Source: an uncultured Candidatus Saccharibacteria bacterium (GTDB lineage: Bacteria; Patescibacteriota; Minisyncoccia; Phycocordibacterales; UBA5272). From it: a stretch of DNA of 64,000 nucleotides. The position numbers and the translations under genes are program-made. How positions within the stretch are numbered: the first letter of the stretch is position 1; every line of letters starts with the position of its first letter. The notes beneath the pieces were generated by a model. It worked only from the letters and a program-made list of their open reading frames with translations, searched no databases and was not told the DNA's origin. Below are positions 2,030 to 63,208 of the stretch, piece after piece. The stretch lies in the NCBI GenBank assembly GCA_964457775.1, contig CAYWEW010000001.1, positions 17,783-81,782 of the forward strand, written 5' to 3'.

Positions 2030-4744
2030 TTATAAAGAGTATTTCTTCATTATTTCCGCTGTTACTTCGTCCACTGGACGGCCGTAGGTTAAGTAACTTA
2101 ACTCTTTTAATGCGTCAATCTTTGTAATGTCACCACGGGGAGGAAATGGTACGAACATATCAAATGGTTTCTTTGGGTCACCATTTGCTAGTATTTTTAT
2201 ATATGCATTATGATTAGATATTTTCATTATATCTCCCGCATTAAATGTTGGTTCAAACTTTGACTCAAGATACTTAGCATCTTCTGGAGAAACTCTATGT
2301 ATTGCCATAGATCCAACGTTACCGAATACTGCACCTTTGATGTCTTCGGTAAGTTGTCCAATATATTGATGAGCAACAGTGAGCGACAATCTATACTTAC
2401 GGGCCTCTGACAGAATAGACGCAATTGCTGGAGTGGTAACGTTTTGGAATTCATCAATATACAAAAAAAAGTCTGGCCGAATATTAGTGTCAACTCTTCC
2501 AAGTGCTGCTTGTGCGAATTTTCCAACAATAATTAGACCGAGTAACTCTGCATTCTTATCACCAAGCTTACCCTTTGCAAGATTAACAAGGAGTATCTTT
2601 TTTGTATCCATTATTTCTCTAAAATTAAACGCGGACTTTTCTTGGGCAATAATTGGACGCATAATGTCGTTTGACATAAACACATCGAATTTACTATTAA
2701 CATATTGTGTCCAATTTTGAAGACCTTGATCCCCTGTTGTCTTCTCCGCATTTTGCCAAAATTGCAAAATGAGAGGATTCTTGCATTTTGATAATTTATA
2801 ATCACGAAAATCTTTATCAGAAAACACACGTGAAATATCAAGTAGAGTGTTACCTGATTCTGGATGCTCCATAACTAACAATGTGGCATTACGGAAATAT
2901 TGCTCAAATCCTGGGCCTCCAGTTGCCTTCATATCAAACAATTTATCAAATATACCAAGAAGTTCATTAACCACAAAAGTCTTCGTTTCTGGATGATTTC
3001 TGTCATATTCAAGCATATTTAGCCCCATAGGACGTGGCATATACGCAGGATCAAAGTAAATCACATCTTTAGCCCTTTCAGCTGGAATATTCGCGAGAAT
3101 ATCTACAATATCCGTACCGTGTGGGTCGATGAAACAACAGCCTTCCCCATTATTAATATCCTGAATTATCATTCGCTTCAAAAAAACGGTCTTACCAGTA
3201 CCCGTCTGCCCTATAACATACATATGCCTCATACGGTCTTCTTTTCCGAAATGAATTTCTGTTTCTAGTCCTCTGTTTTTATTAACTCCAAGAATTATTC
3301 CTTCTGAACATAAATCAACTGGTGCTGGTGATTGTGTATAAGAGCTCTCTCTAACGTTTCCAACATCTTTTGACTGCATTGGAAAATGGAATATTGATGC
3401 AAGTTCTGAAAGATTAAGTGGGTAACTCTCATCCTCATTCCACAAACGATAAGAATAACGATGAAGTAATGCTTTTTGTTTTCTTCCTTCTACTTCTTCC
3501 CATTTTATACTGTTACCATTTATTTCAGCGAATTGTGAAAAAGATGCTTCCAATTCTCCACGTATTGCCTGAGCACGAGAAAGTGAAGATGCTGACGAAA
3601 CGATACGAATATTTGTTTCTATAATTGTCTTTGAAAGTTTTTCTTGGATAAGTTTGGTTGCACTTTCATCTATGTGTGTTGTTTTCTTCTCTTTATCTTT
3701 TTCAATTTCTTCTTTTGATTTTCCACCTGAAAACATTTCTCCTAGAAGATGAAGTGACTCCTTGAGTATGCTTTGTTTATCAATTACACGCTTAAGTGTC
3801 TCTCCTTTTCTTAAATCTTCTAACATTTCTCCGAATCGCTTCGCGAACACATCTCCTGCAGGACGAATTAATATTTGCAAAGCAAGACCTTCATCATCTT
3901 TTGCCATTTTGGTAAAAGAAGCGATTATAACCGTCATTGGGTCACCTTCCATTGTTGCATAAGTTTTAATCGGCAGAACTGGGTGCGTCATATGAGTCGC
4001 ATATGAGCAAGCGGTGATAGCATGGTCGTGGAAAATATTATAATCTTCTTTGCATTCTTTTACCTGTGCAGTCGGGAAAATACCTAAAACTACTTTTTCA
4101 AAAAGTGGGGCATAGTCTATATGAACTGCGCAATAAAATACTGCCGTTGTAACACCGTTTGCAACTGCAAGTTCAAGAGAATAATAATTCTTCTCTTTAT
4201 TCGTTGCATCAGATGCCAGTGCTTGCATAGAAGCATACCACTGCTCCATTAGCCCCATCATTTCTTTTACTTGTTTTGTTTGACCATCCCCTGCATCAGG
4301 CAATACTATTTCGAACAATTTCATGTGGAGAGCTTTCCATTCATCCTTTGATACATCATTTTTTAATTCATGTCCTGAAATTAAATATTGAACAACAAAT
4401 CTTTCAAAATCATCTTCCACTTGTGGGCTATTCAAATCTTCTGCTACTTTAAAAGCATTTTTTATACCCTTTTCAGCCATAACCTGAGAAAGCATACGGA
4501 CTTGAGCGTCTGTTTCCTTTGGTGCTAACCATTCAAGCAATCGGTGCTGTTCACCCGCAGAAACATGGGCTGTTGGTGCAATAATTTTTTCTAAAGGAGT
4601 TTCTTTATAATCACGCACAACTTCATGAGCTCTATCTTTTTCTGTAAATCTACCTTCGAAACCTTTTGCTCTTTCCATTTTATCTGCAACTTGAGAACGA
4701 AGATAAGCAATCTCTTCTTCAGGAGTTGTAAATTGAGTATTCAT
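2030..4744 (-). CDS. FtsK/HerA/TraG-superfamily P-loop ATPase, VirD4/TraD (type IV coupling protein)-like but without N-terminal TM segments
   Basis: 904 aa. Walker A IGQTGTGKT is followed by CFIDPHGTDIV. Walker B FFLYIDEFQNV is followed by EARKYRLSLTVAHQYIGQL, resembling the TraG-D_C RK..(Q..QL) motif. The N-terminal ~450 aa is a soluble helical region. Confidence 0.65.
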   Translation of the reverse strand: MNTQFTTPEEEIAYLRSQVADKMERAKGFEGRFTEKDRAHEVVRDYKETPLEKIIAPTAHVSAGEQHRLLEWLAPKETDAQVRMLSQVMAEKGIKNAFKVAEDLNSPQVEDDFERFVVQYLISGHELKNDVSKDEWKALHMKLFEIVLPDAGDGQTKQVKEMMGLMEQWYASMQALASDATNKEKNYYSLELAVANGVTTAVFYCAVHIDYAPLFEKVVLGIFPTAQVKECKEDYNIFHDHAITACSYATHMTHPVLPIKTYATMEGDPMTVIIASFTKMAKDDEGLALQILIRPAGDVFAKRFGEMLEDLRKGETLKRVIDKQSILKESLHLLGEMFSGGKSKEEIEKDKEKKTTHIDESATKLIQEKLSKTIIETNIRIVSSASSLSRAQAIRGELEASFSQFAEINGNSIKWEEVEGRKQKALLHRYSYRLWNEDESYPLNLSELASIFHFPMQSKDVGNVRESSYTQSPAPVDLCSEGIILGVNKNRGLETEIHFGKEDRMRHMYVIGQTGTGKTVFLKRMIIQDINNGEGCCFIDPHGTDIVDILANIPAERAKDVIYFDPAYMPRPMGLNMLEYDRNHPETKTFVVNELLGIFDKLFDMKATGGPGFEQYFRNATLLVMEHPESGNTLLDISRVFSDKDFRDYKLSKCKNPLILQFWQNAEKTTGDQGLQNWTQYVNSKFDVFMSNDIMRPIIAQEKSAFNFREIMDTKKILLVNLAKGKLGDKNAELLGLIIVGKFAQAALGRVDTNIRPDFFLYIDEFQNVTTPAIASILSEARKYRLSLTVAHQYIGQLTEDIKGAVFGNVGSMAIHRVSPEDAKYLESKFEPTFNAGDIMKISNHNAYIKILANGDPKKPFDMFVPFPPRGDITKIDALKELSYLTYGRPVDEVTAEIMKKYSL

Positions 4745-29610: not shown

Positions 29611-30267
29611 CTACTCCCCTTTGTGAGGATCGTCCGGCAGCATGCAGACCATGTTGCCGTCTTGCGGATGACCTTGCCATGCGAGCTTAGCCCAGACTTT
29701 GCCATCCTTACAGCGCGATGGAACTGCACTTGCAACCTTTTCGGGTTGGGTACTGTTGCCAGCGCGATGCGAGTCGTCCGGTGCCATGCAGACCATGTTG
29801 CCGTCTTGCGGATGACCTGGCCATGCGAGCTTAGCCCAGACTTTTCCATCACTACAACGGTTCTGCGGTTGGGTCATGACTTGTTGGACTTGTTGTTGTT
29901 CGCTTTCGCAGTATTTGTTACCTGCGAATGCTCCGACAAGCCCACCGATGATGGCACCGATTCCACGGTTTTCCTCACCACCAATCAGTGCACCACCTAC
30001 AGCACCAGCTGCACCGCCGACAAGTTCACACTTACCGATGTTGGCTCCTGCCTGCATCACTGGTGCAAAATTCCCTTGCGGTTGCGTAATCAGGCGCCCA
30101 TCCCAGCATTCCTGAGGTTGGCCGAGTTTTTGTGGTGCAGGAACGCACCCTGGAGGAAGACGATACGAGTTATTCGCACCGACTCCCATACCCATGCCAC
30201 CTGTTGCACATCCTCCGAGGAGGAGTGTGGCAACAGCGAGAAGTACTGCAAACAGTTTGTTTTTCAT
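29611..30267 (-). CDS. Lipoprotein with glycine-zipper (SlyB / 17-kDa-antigen-like) segment and two tandem 45-aa Cys-containing repeats; GC-rich
   Basis: Signal plus lipobox-like LLLGGC. Glycine zipper VGGAAGAVGGALIGG...GAIIGGLVGAFAG. Repeats C(S/K)DGKVWAKLAW(P/Q)GHPQDGNMVCM(A/L)PDD. Confidence 0.6.
   Translation of the reverse strand: MKNKLFAVLLAVATLLLGGCATGGMGMGVGANNSYRLPPGCVPAPQKLGQPQECWDGRLITQPQGNFAPVMQAGANIGKCELVGGAAGAVGGALIGGEENRGIGAIIGGLVGAFAGNKYCESEQQQVQQVMTQPQNRCSDGKVWAKLAWPGHPQDGNMVCMAPDDSHRAGNSTQPEKVASAVPSRCKDGKVWAKLAWQGHPQDGNMVCMLPDDPHKGE
29636..29905. repeat. Two tandem 135-bp repeats inside the lipoprotein gene
   Basis: cgtccggcagcatgcagaccatgttgccgtcttgcggatgacc... at 29641 and again at 29775 (about 90% identity). 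Confidence 0.7.
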
Positions 30268-50467: not shown

Positions 50468-50540
50468 GCATCCGTAGCTCAGTTGGTAGAGCCGTCGTCT
50501 TATACACGACTGGTCCCTGGTTCGAGTCCAGGCGGATGCA
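50468..50540 (+). tRNA. tRNA-Ile with unusual UAU anticodon (reads AUA)
   Basis: Manual fold: acceptor GCATCCG/CGGATGC, D-arm GCTC-AGTTGGTA-GAGC, anticodon stem GTCGT/ACGAC with loop CTTATAC (U33, UAU, A37), T-arm CCTGG-TTCGAGT-CCAGG, discriminator A, no CCA. Confidence 0.75.
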
Positions 50541-50745
50541 CAAAAGAACGAAGTGAATTTTGTGCATCCGAAGAAACACAACTGCTTGTGTTTCGTCTGG
50601 ACGAGAAAGCCACAAGCATATTTTGCTAGCAAGCAAAATGCTATACCTAAAAGGTCATTCTGTTGAATGAGGAGTGACTGATTAGAAAATCATGTCGTGA
50701 GACCAAAGCAAAAATTTTTGTGACAACAAAAATTTATTTGTAGGA

Positions 50746-54151: not shown

Positions 54152-54538
54152 GGGGGTGACTTTGGCTTCGATACTAAGAATATGATGTATGTGCTGTATC
54201 GAGACTGCTCTTACACTCGTAAACGTTTTGAGCAACCATGTTGCAAACTCAACTGGCAAGGCTATCCGTTCGCCATACGCGTTCGGACTAGTTCCAGCAT
54301 TCGTCTAATTTAGACCTATCTGGTGTCCTTCTTTTTCGTATCTACGGAAAAAGTCTGGGCAATATAACAGAAGATGTAGGTTATCTTGTTGCATAGCAAC
54401 CTAACCGAAACAAACATGCTATACATTCATTGTTTTCGTTTGTTTTCTATAATGAATACGAACACATGAAGCAAACTACATACAGTAGATTCATGCACCA
54501 TACATTATTACACGCGGGTTCAATTCCCGCCACCTCCA
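54152..54538 (+). ncRNA. ssrA: tmRNA (ssrA), one-piece, ~387 nt, CCA not encoded
   Basis: 5' GGGGGTGACTTTGGCTTCGAT and 3' CACGCGGGTTCAATTCCCGCCACCTCCA match the conserved tmRNA tRNA-like ends; acceptor strands pair. Candidate tag ORF GCA AAC ... GTC TAA at 54243-54308 (ANSTGKAIRSPYAFGLVPAFV). Confidence 0.7.
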
Positions 54539-54592
54539 CAAATACAAAATACTCCACCCCTCTGGTGGAGTATTTTGTATTTGTGGAGGTGG
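54530..54592 (+). terminator. 29-bp perfect hairpin that includes the tmRNA 3' acceptor strand
   Basis: CCACCTCCACAAATACAAAATACTCCACC-cctct-GGTGGAGTATTTTGTATTTGTGGAGGTGG. Confidence 0.5.
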
Positions 54593-54617
54593 AGAAAGCC
54601 AACTGCTTGGCTTTCAA

Positions 54618-59230: not shown

Positions 59231-60604
59231 TTAATCTAATTCAAGAACATCCCCTCTTTCTGGAACAACAACCGGAACATCATATGTTTCGTGAATTCGT
59301 TGACCTAAGAAATATGTACTCTTTGGTTCACCAAGTACAACAATCACCTTCTTAAGTGACGGAGCAGTTGTACCAACGAATTCAACAAGATGCTCTGAGT
59401 CTTTGTGCGCAGAGAATCCATGAATGTTAACCACACGCGCTCGAAGTGGAATCATATTTCCATTAATGTATAGTTCTTTTTCTTCATCAACTATACGGCG
59501 TCCTAATGTATTAACCGCCATATATCCGACAATAATAATTGTACTGTTTGGATCTGGAAGATACTTCGCCTCATGATGTAAGATACGTCCACCATTACTC
59601 ATACCACTTCCAGCGATAATAACTTTTGGACGATTATCACCATTAATAGCCTTACTCTCTTCTGGTGTTGCTGTTTGTATTAAACCCTTGAATGCAAAAA
59701 TATCATCACCACTTTTAATTGTAGCCTCAATATTTTCATTGAACCAACTGTCATATTTTTTATAAATTTTTGTAATATTAATACCAAGTGGGGAATTAAG
59801 GTAAACAGGAATTTCTGGTATTTGCTTACTTTCAACTAATTCATTAAATGCGAGTAACATTTCTTGTGTGCGTTCAATAGAGAATGCTGGAATAAGAACT
59901 GTACCTCCCTTTGCAACCGTACTTACAACCGCCTCCTTAAAAATCTCAATACGTCTATCCTTGTCTTTGTGATTTCTGTCTCCATATACACTCTCAATCA
60001 CCAAGTAATCAATATCCTTAAGCGGTGTTGTGTCTTTCATTAATGGTGAAGGGGTATTCCCGAGATCACCAGTAAAGGCAAGTTTCTTTCCTTTGTATGC
60101 AATTTCAACAATTGAACTTCCCAGTATATGTCCAGCATCATGTAGAGTAATTACAGCATTACCATCATTTGTTTCTATGACAAATTCCTTTTCATAAGTA
60201 AGTGTTGTTCCCCATAGGTGCATACTCTCAAATACATCTTTTTCTTCATAAATCATTGGCGCACCTGAGTGAAGCGACTCTTTTGTTAAAAGTCCCAATG
60301 AATCAAGCATGATAAGTTCTGCCATTTCACGCGTAGGTTCGGTACTGATAATTTGATTTTTGAATCCTTCACGAACAAGATATGGAATACGTCCAACATG
60401 GTCAAGGTGAGCGTGAGTCACAAAAAGATAGTCAATACTTTTTGGGTCATAAATAAAAGGTGCACTGTTAATCGGAATAGAATATTTCTCGCCTTGTACA
60501 AGACCGCAGTCAATGAGAATTTTTTTGCCTCCGAATTCAACTAGGAAGTTGGAACCTGTAGGCATTTGAGCGCCACCCGCAAAAGTAATTTTAAATGTAG
60601 ACAT
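59231..60604 (-). CDS. MBL-fold beta-CASP hydrolase (RNase J / CPSF-like RNA-metabolising enzyme)
   Basis: HxHxDH motif VTHAHLDHVGRIPYL; 457 aa with downstream beta-CASP-like region (His/Asp-containing motifs). Confidence 0.65.
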   Translation of the reverse strand: MSTFKITFAGGAQMPTGSNFLVEFGGKKILIDCGLVQGEKYSIPINSAPFIYDPKSIDYLFVTHAHLDHVGRIPYLVREGFKNQIISTEPTREMAELIMLDSLGLLTKESLHSGAPMIYEEKDVFESMHLWGTTLTYEKEFVIETNDGNAVITLHDAGHILGSSIVEIAYKGKKLAFTGDLGNTPSPLMKDTTPLKDIDYLVIESVYGDRNHKDKDRRIEIFKEAVVSTVAKGGTVLIPAFSIERTQEMLLAFNELVESKQIPEIPVYLNSPLGINITKIYKKYDSWFNENIEATIKSGDDIFAFKGLIQTATPEESKAINGDNRPKVIIAGSGMSNGGRILHHEAKYLPDPNSTIIIVGYMAVNTLGRRIVDEEKELYINGNMIPLRARVVNIHGFSAHKDSEHLVEFVGTTAPSLKKVIVVLGEPKSTYFLGQRIHETYDVPVVVPERGDVLELD

Positions 60605-60664
60605 GAGAATAGTTGGTGGTTATTAGTTACTGGTTCTTAGTTTAATACTAAAAATTAAAAATAC

Positions 60665-61021
60665 CTACTTACGAACAAAAAGGTAGGCAATACTCATACC
60701 AATAAACCCATTAATTAAATCTTTTATTGTATCTACCCAACCTCCCCAGTCTTGAGCAAACATTACGTCGTGTATATATTCATAAGCTTCCCATGTAACT
60801 GCGATCATGATGTAAGTCAAGTATAATTTCTTATATGAGACAGAATTTCCTTTATATGAAAGAATTGCCCCTGTAAGTGATGCAACTCCGAAACCTCCCA
60901 TAATATGCATCGGAATATCTAACCACCATAATTCATAATATAAATATGAAGGATCAAAAACGAATTTTGAAAGACAAAACAATATAATAAGATATGATGC
61001 TGAAATAATGATATGTTTCAT
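60665..61021 (-). CDS. Small 4-TM membrane protein, possibly VanZ-like
   Basis: 118 aa; C-terminal DTIKDLINGFIGMSIAYLF. Assignment is weak. Confidence 0.4.
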   Translation of the reverse strand: MKHIIISASYLIILFCLSKFVFDPSYLYYELWWLDIPMHIMGGFGVASLTGAILSYKGNSVSYKKLYLTYIMIAVTWEAYEYIHDVMFAQDWGGWVDTIKDLINGFIGMSIAYLFVRK

Positions 61022-61121: not shown

Positions 61122-61664
61122 TCATGTAATACGAAACTGTTTTGATTTTATTTTGTGAATCCATGATTCCACCCCTTTTGATGTGAGTAGAGTCCGATAA
61201 TGCCTTGTTCTCTTGGTCGTATGAAGGGCTATCTTTTTCTTTCTTGCGAAGCTACTCCACTTTTTCCTTTTCTGATTTGCTGTTAGAAAAACCCATTCCA
61301 AGTGAGAAGGATTGAAGCACAGAGTCCTTTTGCAAAGATGATCGATACTTAGCCCACAAGCAGAGTATGCAGCATACAACTCGAAAAAAGTTTCCTTATC
61401 CTGTTTGTTATAAAAATCAAAACCTGGACGAAGAATAAGTAACTCCTCTAGAACTTTTGCCACTCTATGTACTGGGAATTTAAGTGACCTCCCTTTGTAG
61501 GTTAAATTAATTCGCCCATAAGAACCATCCTCACCACGTGTGGAAACTGTTACTTTTTGGCAATAACCAGTCCAAAGAGCGCAGTCCCCTTCTCTTTTTG
61601 AATGAGTGCACAATCGATCTACTAAACTAATGTATTTTCCCAAAATTTTCCTTTCGTTAATCAA
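61122..61664 (-). CDS. HNH homing-type endonuclease (HNH_3 family), free-standing
   Basis: CGLSIDHLCKRTLCFNPSHLEWV is the His-Me finger; upstream beta-hairpin region GYCQKVTVSTRGEDGSYGRINL. Confidence 0.6.
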   Translation of the reverse strand: MINERKILGKYISLVDRLCTHSKREGDCALWTGYCQKVTVSTRGEDGSYGRINLTYKGRSLKFPVHRVAKVLEELLILRPGFDFYNKQDKETFFELYAAYSACGLSIDHLCKRTLCFNPSHLEWVFLTANQKRKKWSSFARKKKIALHTTKRTRHYRTLLTSKGVESWIHKIKSKQFRIT

Positions 61665-61916
61665 GTTATAAAAACAACAATGTTAAAAGGATGGTAACAA
61701 AAACAGCCACTTTGTGCAATTAGAAATTAAACAAATTAAAAATCCCTTTATAAATAAAGAGATTTTTAATTTGGGAACTTGGGGCATCTTCCTGATGTTT
61801 TATGTCAGGTGGGTGGGAAACGAATAGGACCACGGTCCAGTTCTCAATATTCCATAACCCAAAGATGCATTATCCAGAAAAATACCTAAGTTCCCTATCT
61901 AGTATTATATTCCTGC

Positions 61917-62485
61917 TATAAAAAAAGTAAAGGGAAAGAAAATATCCATGCTTAAGCATGGATATTTTCTTTAATGGAGGTACTTCGTATCATGTATCTG
62001 TTCGATTGTCGATACGTGGGTAGAGAATCGTAGGTCCTCGAACTCGTACTAATATCTCATCACCCTTGATACTTGATTAGGCAGATACATATTCTTGAAG
62101 TACCTATACTCATTCTATTCCCGCCGCAAAAAATTGCAATATCCCTCCAAGCGATTTTGCGGTGGATTAGGTGGATATGTAATTAGCATGTAACTTGTAG
62201 CGTGTAGCGTGTAGCGTGTAGCGTGTAGTAAAATTATAGAAAAGAAAATACCCGATGACACTCATCGGGTATTTTCTATAGTGGAGGTACTTACGATTAT
62301 TGTTTGTATTATAAGATATGAGAGAGACATGCGTCACGAACGACTATGCACTATCTGACATCCTATAATCCTTCGAAGGTAAACAAACAAATATATCAAA
62401 GCACCTATGACCATTATAGCCCTCAAAAAAAACCATGCAAGTCTAAATTTTCATGTGGATTAGGTGGACAGTGGGGACAACAAAT
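61917..62485 (-). repeat. Two tandem diverged ~250-nt non-coding units, each ending (minus strand) in a hairpin + U-tract; candidate paralogous sRNAs
   Basis: Shared blocks include GAAAATAYCC...GGRTATTTTC hairpins (61936-61967, 62249-62281), GGAGGTACTT and TGGATTAGGTGGA. No ORF of 60 aa or more lies in 61665-62596. Confidence 0.4.
62195..62229. repeat. Heptamer microsatellite (GTGTAGC)x4.5
   Basis: tgtagcgtgtagcgtgtagcgtgtagcgtgtagta. Confidence 0.8.
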
Positions 62486-62523
62486 AGTTTAAAGTCTGTA
62501 AAGTCAAAAGTCCTTAAAGTGGT

Positions 62524-62556
62524 TAAAAATAGAAGCGAAACCTTTGGTTTCGCTTG
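62524..62556 (-). terminator. Terminator hairpin downstream of ndk
   Basis: agaagcgaaacc-tttg-gtttcgcttgtattttt. Confidence 0.5.
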
Positions 62557-62596
62557 TATTTTTACTTTCGACTTTATAGACTTTACGGACTTTTGA

Positions 62597-63208
62597 CTAT
62601 TCTAATATTCCATCCAAGTTCACGTCGTAAAGAATTTCATCTTGAACTAAACGGTAGTCCAAAATCTCATTTTCGTTAAACCAAATTGGAATTTCGTATG
62701 ATGCTTCCGCTGGATTATCTGTGCAGTGAATTAGGTTTCTTACTGCGCGACCATCAACATCACAAATATTATATGTATCTATTGTGAAGTCCCCTCTTAT
62801 TGTTCCAACATCTGATGTTGCTGGTTCAGTTCCACCAACCAACTTCTTCACTATAGCAACAGATGAGTTACCTTCAACAATAAATCCAACCACAGGCCCT
62901 GCTGTCATGTATTTTACTAGAGCACGAATAATATCTTTTCCGTATTCTATTGCCTCCTTTTCAACTGGAAGTCCTGCCTTTTTAAGATACTCTATGGTGT
63001 TTGACCCTTTCTTATTGAACCATACATCATCTTTATTATAATGCTTCCAACATTGATCTTCTGTTGGTATGAACATTTTGAGACCAATAATTTTGAGACC
63101 TGTTCTTTCAATTCTCTTAATTATTTCACCAACGAGTGAACGCTGAATTCCGTCAGGCTTAATCATTACATAGGTTCGTTCTTTTTTTGGATGTGTTGCT
63201 TGTGACAT
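62597..63208 (-). CDS. ndk: Nucleoside diphosphate kinase, long variant with ~55-aa insertion
   Basis: ERTYVMIKPDGIQRSLVGEIIKRIERTGLKI and NLIHCTDNPAEA (active-site His) motifs; 203 aa against the usual ~140. Confidence 0.75.
   Translation of the reverse strand: MSQATHPKKERTYVMIKPDGIQRSLVGEIIKRIERTGLKIIGLKMFIPTEDQCWKHYNKDDVWFNKKGSNTIEYLKKAGLPVEKEAIEYGKDIIRALVKYMTAGPVVGFIVEGNSSVAIVKKLVGGTEPATSDVGTIRGDFTIDTYNICDVDGRAVRNLIHCTDNPAEASYEIPIWFNENEILDYRLVQDEILYDVNLDGILE

Follow-up and report, generated by a model that had tools for sequence, protein, structure and literature searches.

6S RNA (SsrS), the RNA by which bacteria put RNA polymerase on hold, is among the few nearly universal bacterial regulatory RNAs. 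Here we describe an interval of 0.9 kb (positions 61665-62596) in a 64-kb stretch of DNA from an uncultured Candidatus Saccharibacteria bacterium; the whole stretch analyzed is referred to as the window. The interval lies between ndk and a small endonuclease gene, and its longest open reading frames (ORFs) code for 56 and 48 amino acids (aa), in line with the original prediction, which had reported no ORF of 60 aa or more there. On its minus strand, three small-RNA genes (B, A and C, in that order) follow one another head to tail and form an array. With a probability of about 0.7, we consider A and C to be miniature 6S-type RNAs, most probably the 6S RNA of this lineage.

Family RF00013 of Rfam and Escherichia coli ssrS are the first terms of comparison. 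In common with them, the 6S-like RNAs described here have a rod shape with a closing stem, a large central bubble and an apical stem, GGG...CCCACCU at the bubble borders, a 3' bubble strand able to fold into a hairpin with the downstream helix's 3' strand, and a stand-alone gene in conserved synteny. They differ from them in a family core of about 130 instead of about 185 nucleotides (nt), in a much shorter apical ('-35') arm, in ending in an intrinsic terminator of their own, and in the presence of three copies in tandem, B included. In Bacillus subtilis there is likewise more than one 6S-type gene per genome (6S-1 and 6S-2, encoded by bsrA and bsrB), with different promoters and presumably different regulation, and a small 3'-bubble hairpin is possible already in the free RNA (PMC8876501; PMC8414754); however, the Bacillus genes are unlinked and both RNAs have a bubble, whereas here the genes are adjacent and B is bubble-less. 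Truncated 6S-1 RNAs of 78-82 nt without the -35 arm (6S78, 6S82cp) bind polymerase, template product RNA and get released, so that a bubble with short arms suffices for these steps (PMC8876501). For this reason, a natural 6S core of about 130 nt is mechanistically plausible, although those truncated RNAs are laboratory constructs with about 10-fold lower affinity and the window RNAs keep a long closing stem. Ms1 RNA of Actinobacteria is also a 6S-like rod found where canonical 6S is undetected; unlike the RNAs described here, it binds core polymerase, measures about 300 nt and lacks the GGG/CCCACCU signature, and no family other than 6S came up in Rfam scans of the family members. A full-text literature search did not find any report of 6S RNA in Patescibacteria or the candidate phyla radiation (CPR).

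Since each of B, A and C has a predicted promoter and terminator, the array comprises three complete transcription units. Its features are the following:

62455-62468, minus strand: promoter box of gene B, TCCACCTAATCCAC, a tandem TCCAC at about -47 to -60 relative to the RNA start.
62413-62440, minus strand: promoter of gene B, with TTGCAT at 62435-62440, a 16-nt spacer and TATAAT at 62413-62418 (read from the sequence).
62408 to about 62236, minus strand: RNA B, about 172 nt, with its body at 62278-62408, the linker ACCUCCACUAU at 62278-62288, and a terminator hairpin at 62243-62277 followed by a U-run.
62184-62228, no strand assigned: heptamer microsatellite (TAGCGTG/GTGTAGC), 6.4 copies with 89% matches by Tandem Repeats Finder (TRF), forming the spacer between the terminator of B and the box of A.
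62162-62175, minus strand: promoter box of gene A, TCCACCTAATCCAC.
62112-62139, minus strand: promoter of gene A, with TTGCAA at 62134-62139, a 16-nt spacer and TAGAAT at 62112-62117 (promoter scan).
62107 to about 61927, minus strand: RNA A, about 180 nt, with the linker ACCUCCAUUA at 61972-61981 and a terminator hairpin at 61935-61972 followed by a U-run.
62066-62081, 62063-62065 and 62016-62020, minus strand: in RNA A, the 5' bubble strand, GGG and CCCAC, respectively.
61904-61931, minus strand: promoter of gene C, with TTTACT at 61926-61931, a 16-nt spacer and TATAAT at 61904-61909 (promoter scan).
61898 to about 61725, minus strand: RNA C, about 174 nt, with a terminator hairpin at 61732-61773 followed by a U-run.
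61875-61878, 61861-61874 and 61858-61860, minus strand: in RNA C, UCUG (which forms the last closing-stem pairs with CAGG), the 5' bubble strand GAUAAUGCAUCUUU and GGG, respectively.
61827-61838, 61805-61813 and 61791-61795, minus strand: in RNA C, the apical hairpin GGACCGUGGUCC, then CCCACCUGA and, after the 3' bubble strand, UCAGG.

The original prediction had described two units, A and B, as candidate paralogous minus-strand small RNAs (sRNAs), each ending in a hairpin and a U-tract. The existence of both units was confirmed: there are exactly two copies of the 26-nt AAGTACCTCCAYTAWAGAAAATAYCC in the 64 kb, against none expected by chance, and the 14-nt common block TCCACCTAATCCAC also occurs twice (0.3 expected, allowing at most two mismatches). 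The order of the blocks is kept between A and B, with a spacing of 293-307 nt, and the minus-strand end of each unit is a perfect hairpin of 16-17 base pairs (bp) followed by a T-rich run (62277-62243 and 61972-61935); a terminator scan of the window gave five terminator-like sites against 0.9 expected. The predicted length of about 250 nt, by contrast, mixed a promoter region of about 85 nt with an RNA of 172-181 nt, and a related third element in the same interval, C (61725-61931), had been overlooked. Promoters, terminators, pairing on the minus strand only and a conservation higher than that of the neighboring genes all speak for the sRNA claim; what it did not reach was the 6S-like identity of A and the existence of C, the ancestral copy. 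Several parts had to be reassigned. The blocks TGGATTAGGTGGA and GGAGGTACTT, thought to be RNA parts or a ribosome-binding site, are the complement of the promoter box TCCACCTAATCCAC and the complement of AAGUACCUCC, respectively, the latter being the 3' strand of the closing stem, which pairs with the RNA 5' end in A and B; the hairpin block AGAAAATAYCC is the terminator of both. The palindrome GGACCACGGTCC lies at 61827-61838 and not at 61860, and the one placed at 62100 is really the 5' strand of the closing stem of A. The microsatellite does separate the units, with 6.4 copies (degenerate ones included) in place of the 4.5 given before.

Judged by the names attached to its closest ndk homologues, the organism is an ultra-small bacterium of the Parcubacteria/Paceibacterota type, within the CPR. 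For comparison, syntenic loci (numbered with the prefix L) were taken from contigs on which a close homologue of the endonuclease or of ndk is encoded. In A and B, the -35 hexamer after the box is TTGCA(T/A) and, beyond a 16-nt spacer, the -10 hexamer is TA(T/G)AAT; about 7 nt past the latter, the RNA begins with AUAGGU(G/A)CUU. The promoter of B was not listed by the consensus scan, since its -35 hexamer matches at three of six positions, and its arrangement is kept in L013 and L010. Element C follows the same plan, with an RNA start at AUAGGG and a closing stem, and lacks the TCCAC box; its promoter shares sequence with the U-run at the end of A and recurs in L013 and L010. Each of the 20 family members examined has a TATAAT-like -10 hexamer whose last base lies 4-5 nt ahead of the modelled start, and the closing stem is directly followed by a strong hairpin with a U-run. 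The TCCAC-N4-TCCAC box stands upstream of every A-, B- and U-type RNA in the relatives and nowhere else in 104 loci. It resembles a DnaA box (TAATCCACA and TTATCCACA are identical at eight of nine positions). A replication origin at this place was considered and rejected, DnaA boxes being neither enriched nor clustered in the window (23 against 22 expected) and neither GC skew nor gene orientation switching here. Three GTGGA(A/T) boxes with 11-nt spacing and opposite orientation were seen upstream of the RNA promoter in L056 (about 3600-3635) and L060 (about 1638-1673).

A and C are members of one RNA family, encoded on the minus strand. Fold z-scores were -5.7 for RNA A and -4.9 for RNA B. 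The consensus fold of A, C and their relatives begins with about 22 bp of closing stem. It continues with an internal loop, in which 13-17 nt are unpaired on either side, an invariant GGG:CCC helix at the apical side of the loop, a covarying 4-bp helix and a variable apical hairpin. A- and C-type RNAs have in common the core GGGU, a 3-nt bulge, G(G/A)(A/G)A, UAUUG, the variable hairpin, U(U/C)(C/U)C, U and ACCCAC, in which GGAA:UUCC is swapped for GAGA:UCUC, a first covariation. When eight A/C-type sequences in a plain MAFFT alignment were folded with RNAalifold, a rod of 37 pairs was obtained, 19 of them with compensatory double changes, and many pairs were G.U, which on the opposite strand would give A.C mismatches. 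In broad MAFFT alignments (A4-A6) the columns near GGG were off by one, and models were therefore made from a model-guided alignment instead. In a 13-sequence alignment, 90.8% of the cells were paired, as compared with 57.7% after shuffling and 37-48% after sliding, and 32 of the 37 pairs varied on both sides; it must be held against these figures that the alignments concerned (A7, A8) were fitted to the model, which favours its structure, and that the sequences are related.

Covariance models were built from the eight A/C-type sequences (R1), from five distant RNAs only (R2) and from 13 sequences (R3). R1 matched a further member after ndk in L102 and, with filters off, candidates at exactly the positions located by eye in L064, L056, L060, L032 and L094. 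In the window, the highest R2 score was that of C (54.7 bits, E = 1e-9) and the next highest that of A (34.0 bits, E = 5e-5), in each case on the minus strand; R2 also retrieved the C and A/U-type RNAs of L013, L010, L024 and L027, and reverse-strand scores were much lower. No further copies beyond the tandem ones were found in the 64-kb window. A gapped DNA pattern running from the box to the closing stem gave a single chance match in genome contigs, in a coding region of Chitinophagales, and no match in viral contigs.

The same base pairs bear on the proposal that the interval holds plus-strand genes for small peptides (leader peptides or type I toxins) behind GGAGG, or a decayed protein gene, which is the least probable of the explanations considered. 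Short ORFs do follow GGAGG, of 13 aa in A and of 16-25 aa in the invariant segment of B. Their products, however, are unlike between A and B and among relatives, the plus-strand ORFs are not conserved, substitutions preserve base pairs and not codons, and GGAGG is the complement of CCUCC in the closing stem; moreover, the 46-nt segment of B is identical in three genomes, with zero synonymous changes and no ribosome-binding site nearby. The suggestion that a coding gene had pseudogenised here did not hold either: tblastn with the ORFs of 596 and 85 aa that relatives carry at this position found nothing in the window.

One link of A and C to 6S RNA is the arrangement of conserved nucleotides around the bubble, which in 6S RNA has a closing pair YC:GG and GGG...CCCACCU. 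In the 13-16 family members compared, GGG, CCCAC and the U that follows at a distance of two bases never vary. The Rfam 6S consensus reads CC-(16-nt A/U-rich bulge)-GGGagccc...gggcaCCCACCUgg...gCaGG, and C matches it with UC-(14 nt)-GGG...CCCACCUGA-CAUAAAACA-UCAGG; A has GGG...CCCACGUAUC...GAUAC, with the signature CCCACGU. In a permissive scan, RF00013 had the lowest E-value of all Rfam families for the members in L102 and L064, on the right strand and in register. The L102 RNA scored 24.2 bits (E = 0.0022 in a 191-nt scan, 0.63 in a 55-kb scan) over model positions 41-146. The L064 RNA scored 17.1 bits (E = 0.089); a 25-nt CRISPR-repeat match there reached 18.5 bits, but with E = 0.33. The modelled core measures 129-136 nt, and the RNA would measure 172-181 nt should its mature form retain the terminator hairpin; these sizes can be set beside a 6S length of about 150-200 nt.

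Further evidence came from complementarity among three segments. In C, both UCUG (5' side of the last closing-stem helix) and CCUGA (3' bubble strand) are complementary to UCAGG on the 3' side of that helix; in A, the 3' bubble strand contains GUAUC, and GAUAC, its possible partner, lies on the 3' side of the closing stem. Across four distant loci the three segments change together:

L102: 5' helix CUAC; 3' bubble CCUAC; 3' helix GUAGG.
L064: 5' helix CUUAA; 3' bubble CCUAA; 3' helix UUAGG.
L032: 5' helix UCUAG; 3' bubble CCUAGU; 3' helix ACUAGG.
L056: 5' helix CCUAAU; 3' bubble CCUAAUA; 3' helix UAUUAGG.

In 11 of 13 members, shuffled sequences gave a less stable hairpin than the 3' bubble joined to the 3' helix strand (p < 0.05), with a combined p of 6e-13 for sequences that are related. 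The same rearrangement is described for 6S RNAs of the E. coli type: synthesis of the product RNA unwinds the downstream helix, and a hairpin formed by the freed 3' strand and the 3' bubble drives release of the polymerase (PMC8876501).

By analogy with characterized 6S RNAs, the bubble of A and C would look like an open promoter to the housekeeping RNA polymerase holoenzyme and keep it bound. On its release, the enzyme would transcribe the 5' bubble strand and run on into the closing stem, giving a short product RNA; candidate products would lie, for example, within 5'-AUUAUCCAGAAAAAUAC in the case of C and 5'-GAUUAGGCAGAUACAU in that of A. This would leave the 3' strand (UCAGG in C, GAUAC in A) free to pair with the 3' bubble (CCUGA and GUAUC, respectively), and the resulting hairpin would eject the polymerase. 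As to GG at positions 4-6, a conserved hallmark of product RNAs (PMC8414754), inspection by eye gave a mixed result: GAUUAGGCAG is possible for A, and nothing of the kind was seen for C.

Several results weigh against assigning A and C to 6S RNA. The Rfam scan that had been proposed as a check gave nothing credible in the region even at E <= 10 (in the whole window it returned one tmRNA and two tRNAs), and the window copies matched no Rfam family, whether the gathering threshold or E <= 10 was applied; a scan confined to 146 nt of C was negative too. The relatives L063 and L032 had no Rfam match either, and the scores of L102 and L064 are far below the RF00013 gathering score of 46.4 bits. Conversely, E. 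coli ssrS (L104, 984-1166) was not detected by R2 or R3, even with filters off; it is atypical at the signature, having UUCACCU and not CCCACCU. A core of 129-136 nt is shorter than a typical 6S RNA (about 180-200 nt) and its apical arm is short. Unit B has neither the bubble nor GGG/CCCACCU. Generic long hairpins reach 20-30 bits with the family models, and for this reason scores near 30 bits were counted only together with synteny and the signature. Because membership is unproven by score, A and C were filed as 6S-like and not as demonstrated members. Two palindromes were recorded during these scans: one of about 100 nt, near-perfect, at 10942-11042 of L010, which scored about 30 bits on both strands with R2 and from which it follows that about 30 bits with these models is not specific; and a near-perfect palindromic hairpin at 54528-54594 of the window, overlapping the 3' end of the tmRNA gene (54152-54541, plus strand; 89.3 bits), which scored about 22 bits on both strands with the rod-shaped RNA model.

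The main alternative, which we regard as improbable, is that these are lineage-specific structured sRNAs merely resembling 6S, for example base-pairing regulators whose ACCUCCA linker or C-rich bubble would pair with Shine-Dalgarno sequences, or sponges for a protein other than polymerase. The sub-threshold Rfam 6S matches (none for the window copies), the failure of the family models on ssrS and the bubble-less B are all compatible with it, as is the single-stranded ACCUCCAY linker kept between rod and terminator by A, B and their U-type relatives. This linker, however, is absent from C-type and distant members, and the conserved nucleotides do not sit in a single-stranded seed but flank the bubble exactly as in the 6S consensus. 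In addition, the three-way complementarity needed for 6S release would be useless to a seed-pairing sRNA. Two known RNAs were also considered and rejected. C contains CUGGAUAAUGC and ACCUGA, as in a thiamine pyrophosphate (TPP) riboswitch, but these are not conserved in distant members, their order differs, and there was no Rfam TPP match. For signal recognition particle (SRP) RNA, the apical region concerned is the variable part of the family, and the Rfam scans gave no SRP match.

RNA B shares with A the box, the promoter, the first 10 nt, the last 17 nt or so (AAGUACCUCCAYUAW) and the terminator, with residual similarity around AAGG(G/A)U(G/U)AU. Its interior is a nearly continuous helix of 47 predicted pairs interrupted by a single 13-nt 5' bulge; the two-sided bubble and the 3' bubble strand are absent, and it scored 20.4 bits with R1 (E = 0.28) and nothing with R2. 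When B was aligned with its counterparts in L013 and L010, three compensatory pairs and several G.U pairs were found, and a 46-mer (62314-62359) was invariant in the three. B is under selection, as judged from its identity of 88-89% to relatives, the invariant 46-nt segment, the compensatory changes and the G.U pairs. Since in the predicted fold its interior has closed to a nearly continuous helix, B probably no longer mimics an open promoter and has probably acquired another role.

The closest relatives are arranged as follows:

L013: ndk, an 830-bp gap and the endonuclease gene.
L010: ndk, unit B, a 596-aa ORF, the third conserved element and the endonuclease gene.
L024 and L027: one A-like unit and the third element, followed directly by the genes for DUF2238 and a beta-CASP ribonuclease; the endonuclease gene is absent.

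Unit B is nearly intact in L013 and L010 (85-89% identity), and unit A has been lost in L013 and replaced in L010. Element C is the best conserved sequence of the neighborhood, 92-93% identical to L013 and L010, compared with 69-84% for the flanking protein genes. C-type RNAs follow ndk in many Parcubacteria, and at most of these loci the DUF2238 and beta-CASP genes come next; about 10 distant loci, with ndk 60-72% identical, have a single such RNA between ndk and those two genes. Members placed right after ndk were also found with R2 in L030, L052 and L043, where DUF2238 and beta-CASP genes were not detected in the available sequence (the contigs of L030 and L052 end about 330 and 300 nt past the RNA, respectively).

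On this map, the RNAs might instead be cis-acting leaders (riboswitches or attenuators), duplicated in tandem, that control the DUF2238/beta-CASP operon through their terminators. We consider this very unlikely. At no fewer than 10 distant loci, it is true, a single RNA with its terminator stands directly upstream of DUF2238 and beta-CASP on the same strand. But in the window A and B each precede another RNA gene with its own promoter, C precedes an inserted endonuclease gene, relatives carry a 596-aa or an 85-aa ORF between the copies, and the members of L030, L043 and L052 follow ndk with no DUF2238 or beta-CASP gene detected in the sequence available. Inspection by eye of L032, L064, L102 and L063 showed TATAAT/TACAAT-like hexamers past the terminator and ahead of the start codon, and no obvious anti-terminator pairing was seen; the terminators vary freely while the RNA core is fixed, and the Rfam scans gave no match to a riboswitch family. 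A functional link of another sort between the array and the ribonuclease is conceivable by analogy, because RNase J1, which is also a beta-CASP enzyme, is reported to process 6S RNAs in B. subtilis (PMC10578484).

The protein genes around the array, and the ndk terminator, are the following:

62597-63208, minus strand: ndk (Pfam NDK, E = 1e-36).
62483-62601, no strand assigned: ndk terminator region, with an inner bidirectional hairpin at 62524-62564 (inverted repeats, terminator scan, TRF period 9).
61122-61664, minus strand: His-Me finger/HNH-like endonuclease gene, 173-180 aa (Pfam zf-His_Me_endon and HNH_3, both below cut-off).
59231-61021, minus strand: genes for a small DUF2238 membrane protein and a 457-aa beta-CASP/RMMBL ribonuclease of the aCPSF1/Cas14-like type.

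The ndk terminator sits in an imperfect inverted repeat of about 115 nt made of 9-nt GACTTTACA-like units, upstream of B and outside the RNAs; in L010 a different direct repeat, GTAACACTTTATGACTTTT in two copies, takes its place. The endonuclease gene is an insertion between RNA C and the DUF2238 gene, outside the RNA array, and it occurs there only in the window clade. It is one of three insertions next to RNA genes in these loci, together with the 596-aa ORF of L010 (2617-4407; also in L011), a Pro/Gln/Val-rich protein with no Pfam domain, and the 85-aa ORF of L024 (5023-5280), for a helix-turn-helix (HTH_3-like) protein; the latter two lie between RNA genes. Homologues of the endonuclease with 49-62% identity lie beside tRNA genes (L015-L019), between atpB and atpA (L020) and beside a photolyase gene (L021), and from its sequence contexts the gene appears to behave like a free-standing homing endonuclease. 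Upstream of the homologue in L015, positions 4270-4640 hold tandem, near-identical tRNA-like segments (AAAGATAGCGGAGTAGAGTAAAGGTAACTC...) broken by a run of N, which may be a repeated partial tRNA array or an assembly artefact.

With this neighbor, the array could be the remains of a mobile element, either inverted repeats of the kind found in miniature inverted-repeat transposable elements or debris of a homing endonuclease or intron; this we judge highly improbable. Each unit is indeed a long imperfect inverted repeat with conserved ends, and the adjacent His-Me finger endonuclease is found in varied contexts. Yet only tandem copies exist in the 64-kb window, and the RNAs keep the same chromosomal position across distant relatives with or without the endonuclease; the HNH-linked element of the original prediction fails on this point, since L024, L027 and L102 have the RNAs at the same place without the HNH gene. 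G.U pairs and model scores on one strand indicate RNA and not DNA symmetry, each unit has a promoter and a terminator, and Rfam gave no match to group I or II introns or to RNA families related to insertion sequences. A link between the RNAs and the endonuclease was rejected because distant homologues of the latter sit in unrelated contexts without these RNAs. An IscB-type ORF combines RuvC and HNH and measures about 400-500 aa. A HEARO/IscB omega-RNA was discarded as well: the neighbor is only a His-Me finger protein of 173-180 aa, Rfam gave no HEARO match, and the RNAs occur in L024, L027 and L102 without the endonuclease gene.

Returning to the reading of A and C as 6S-type RNAs, the distribution among relatives suggests how the array could have been formed. 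In the simplest history, C would be the ancestral single gene after ndk and probably the constitutive copy, and from such a C-type gene the box-bearing duplicate (U/A type, present in L024 and L027) would have arisen. A would be the older duplicate, whose promoter gained the tandem TCCAC box; this box suggests separate regulation. B would be a younger duplicate of A, arisen in the ancestor of the window, L013 and L010, with A lost later in the last two. A bolder proposal, which we put forward as speculative and rather unlikely as a whole, is that Parcubacteria have a minimal 6S RNA without a real '-35' arm, expanded here into a regulated array with division of labour. C would be constitutive, A would be under a DnaA-box-like operator of tandem TCCAC, and B, its bubble closed, would have taken on a new function, for example as a double-stranded rod with an anti-Shine-Dalgarno-like CCUCC linker or as a decoy for a double-strand-specific protein.

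Other observations were made along the window and its closest contigs. Logan contigs of the same strain (L001-L004) stop at the heptamer microsatellite (62199) or inside unit B; since independent short-read assemblies stop there, the region is hard to assemble and may be missing from many metagenome-assembled genomes. At 50468-50541 (plus strand) there is a tRNA-Ile with anticodon UAU (ARAGORN); such a tRNA is uncommon in bacteria for AUA, the usual one being a lysidine-modified CAU tRNA. Between 28000 and 30300 the local G+C content rises to 0.46 from about 0.36, with overlapping ORFs on both strands, probably because the ORF at 29611-30267 (minus strand) codes for a glycine-zipper membrane protein.

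6S RNA itself is a known kind of RNA. The novelty lies in a miniature 6S-like family of Parcubacteria, for which the curated model gives nothing in the window or in most relatives, in the conserved placement of its members behind ndk, and in a tandem of three genes that includes a bubble-less derivative and a promoter carrying the box. The array brings no new principle unless B or the box does something unexpected. If these RNAs are the 6S RNA of the CPR, a dedicated model would improve the annotation of a very large bacterial radiation, and a natural form of about 130 nt would test how little RNA suffices to hold RNA polymerase. Were this so, the array, with its distinct promoters and bubble-less paralogue, would offer a compact system for studying the divergence of 6S paralogues. 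If they are not 6S, they still constitute a strongly conserved RNA family, supported by covariation, in organisms with very few known regulators.

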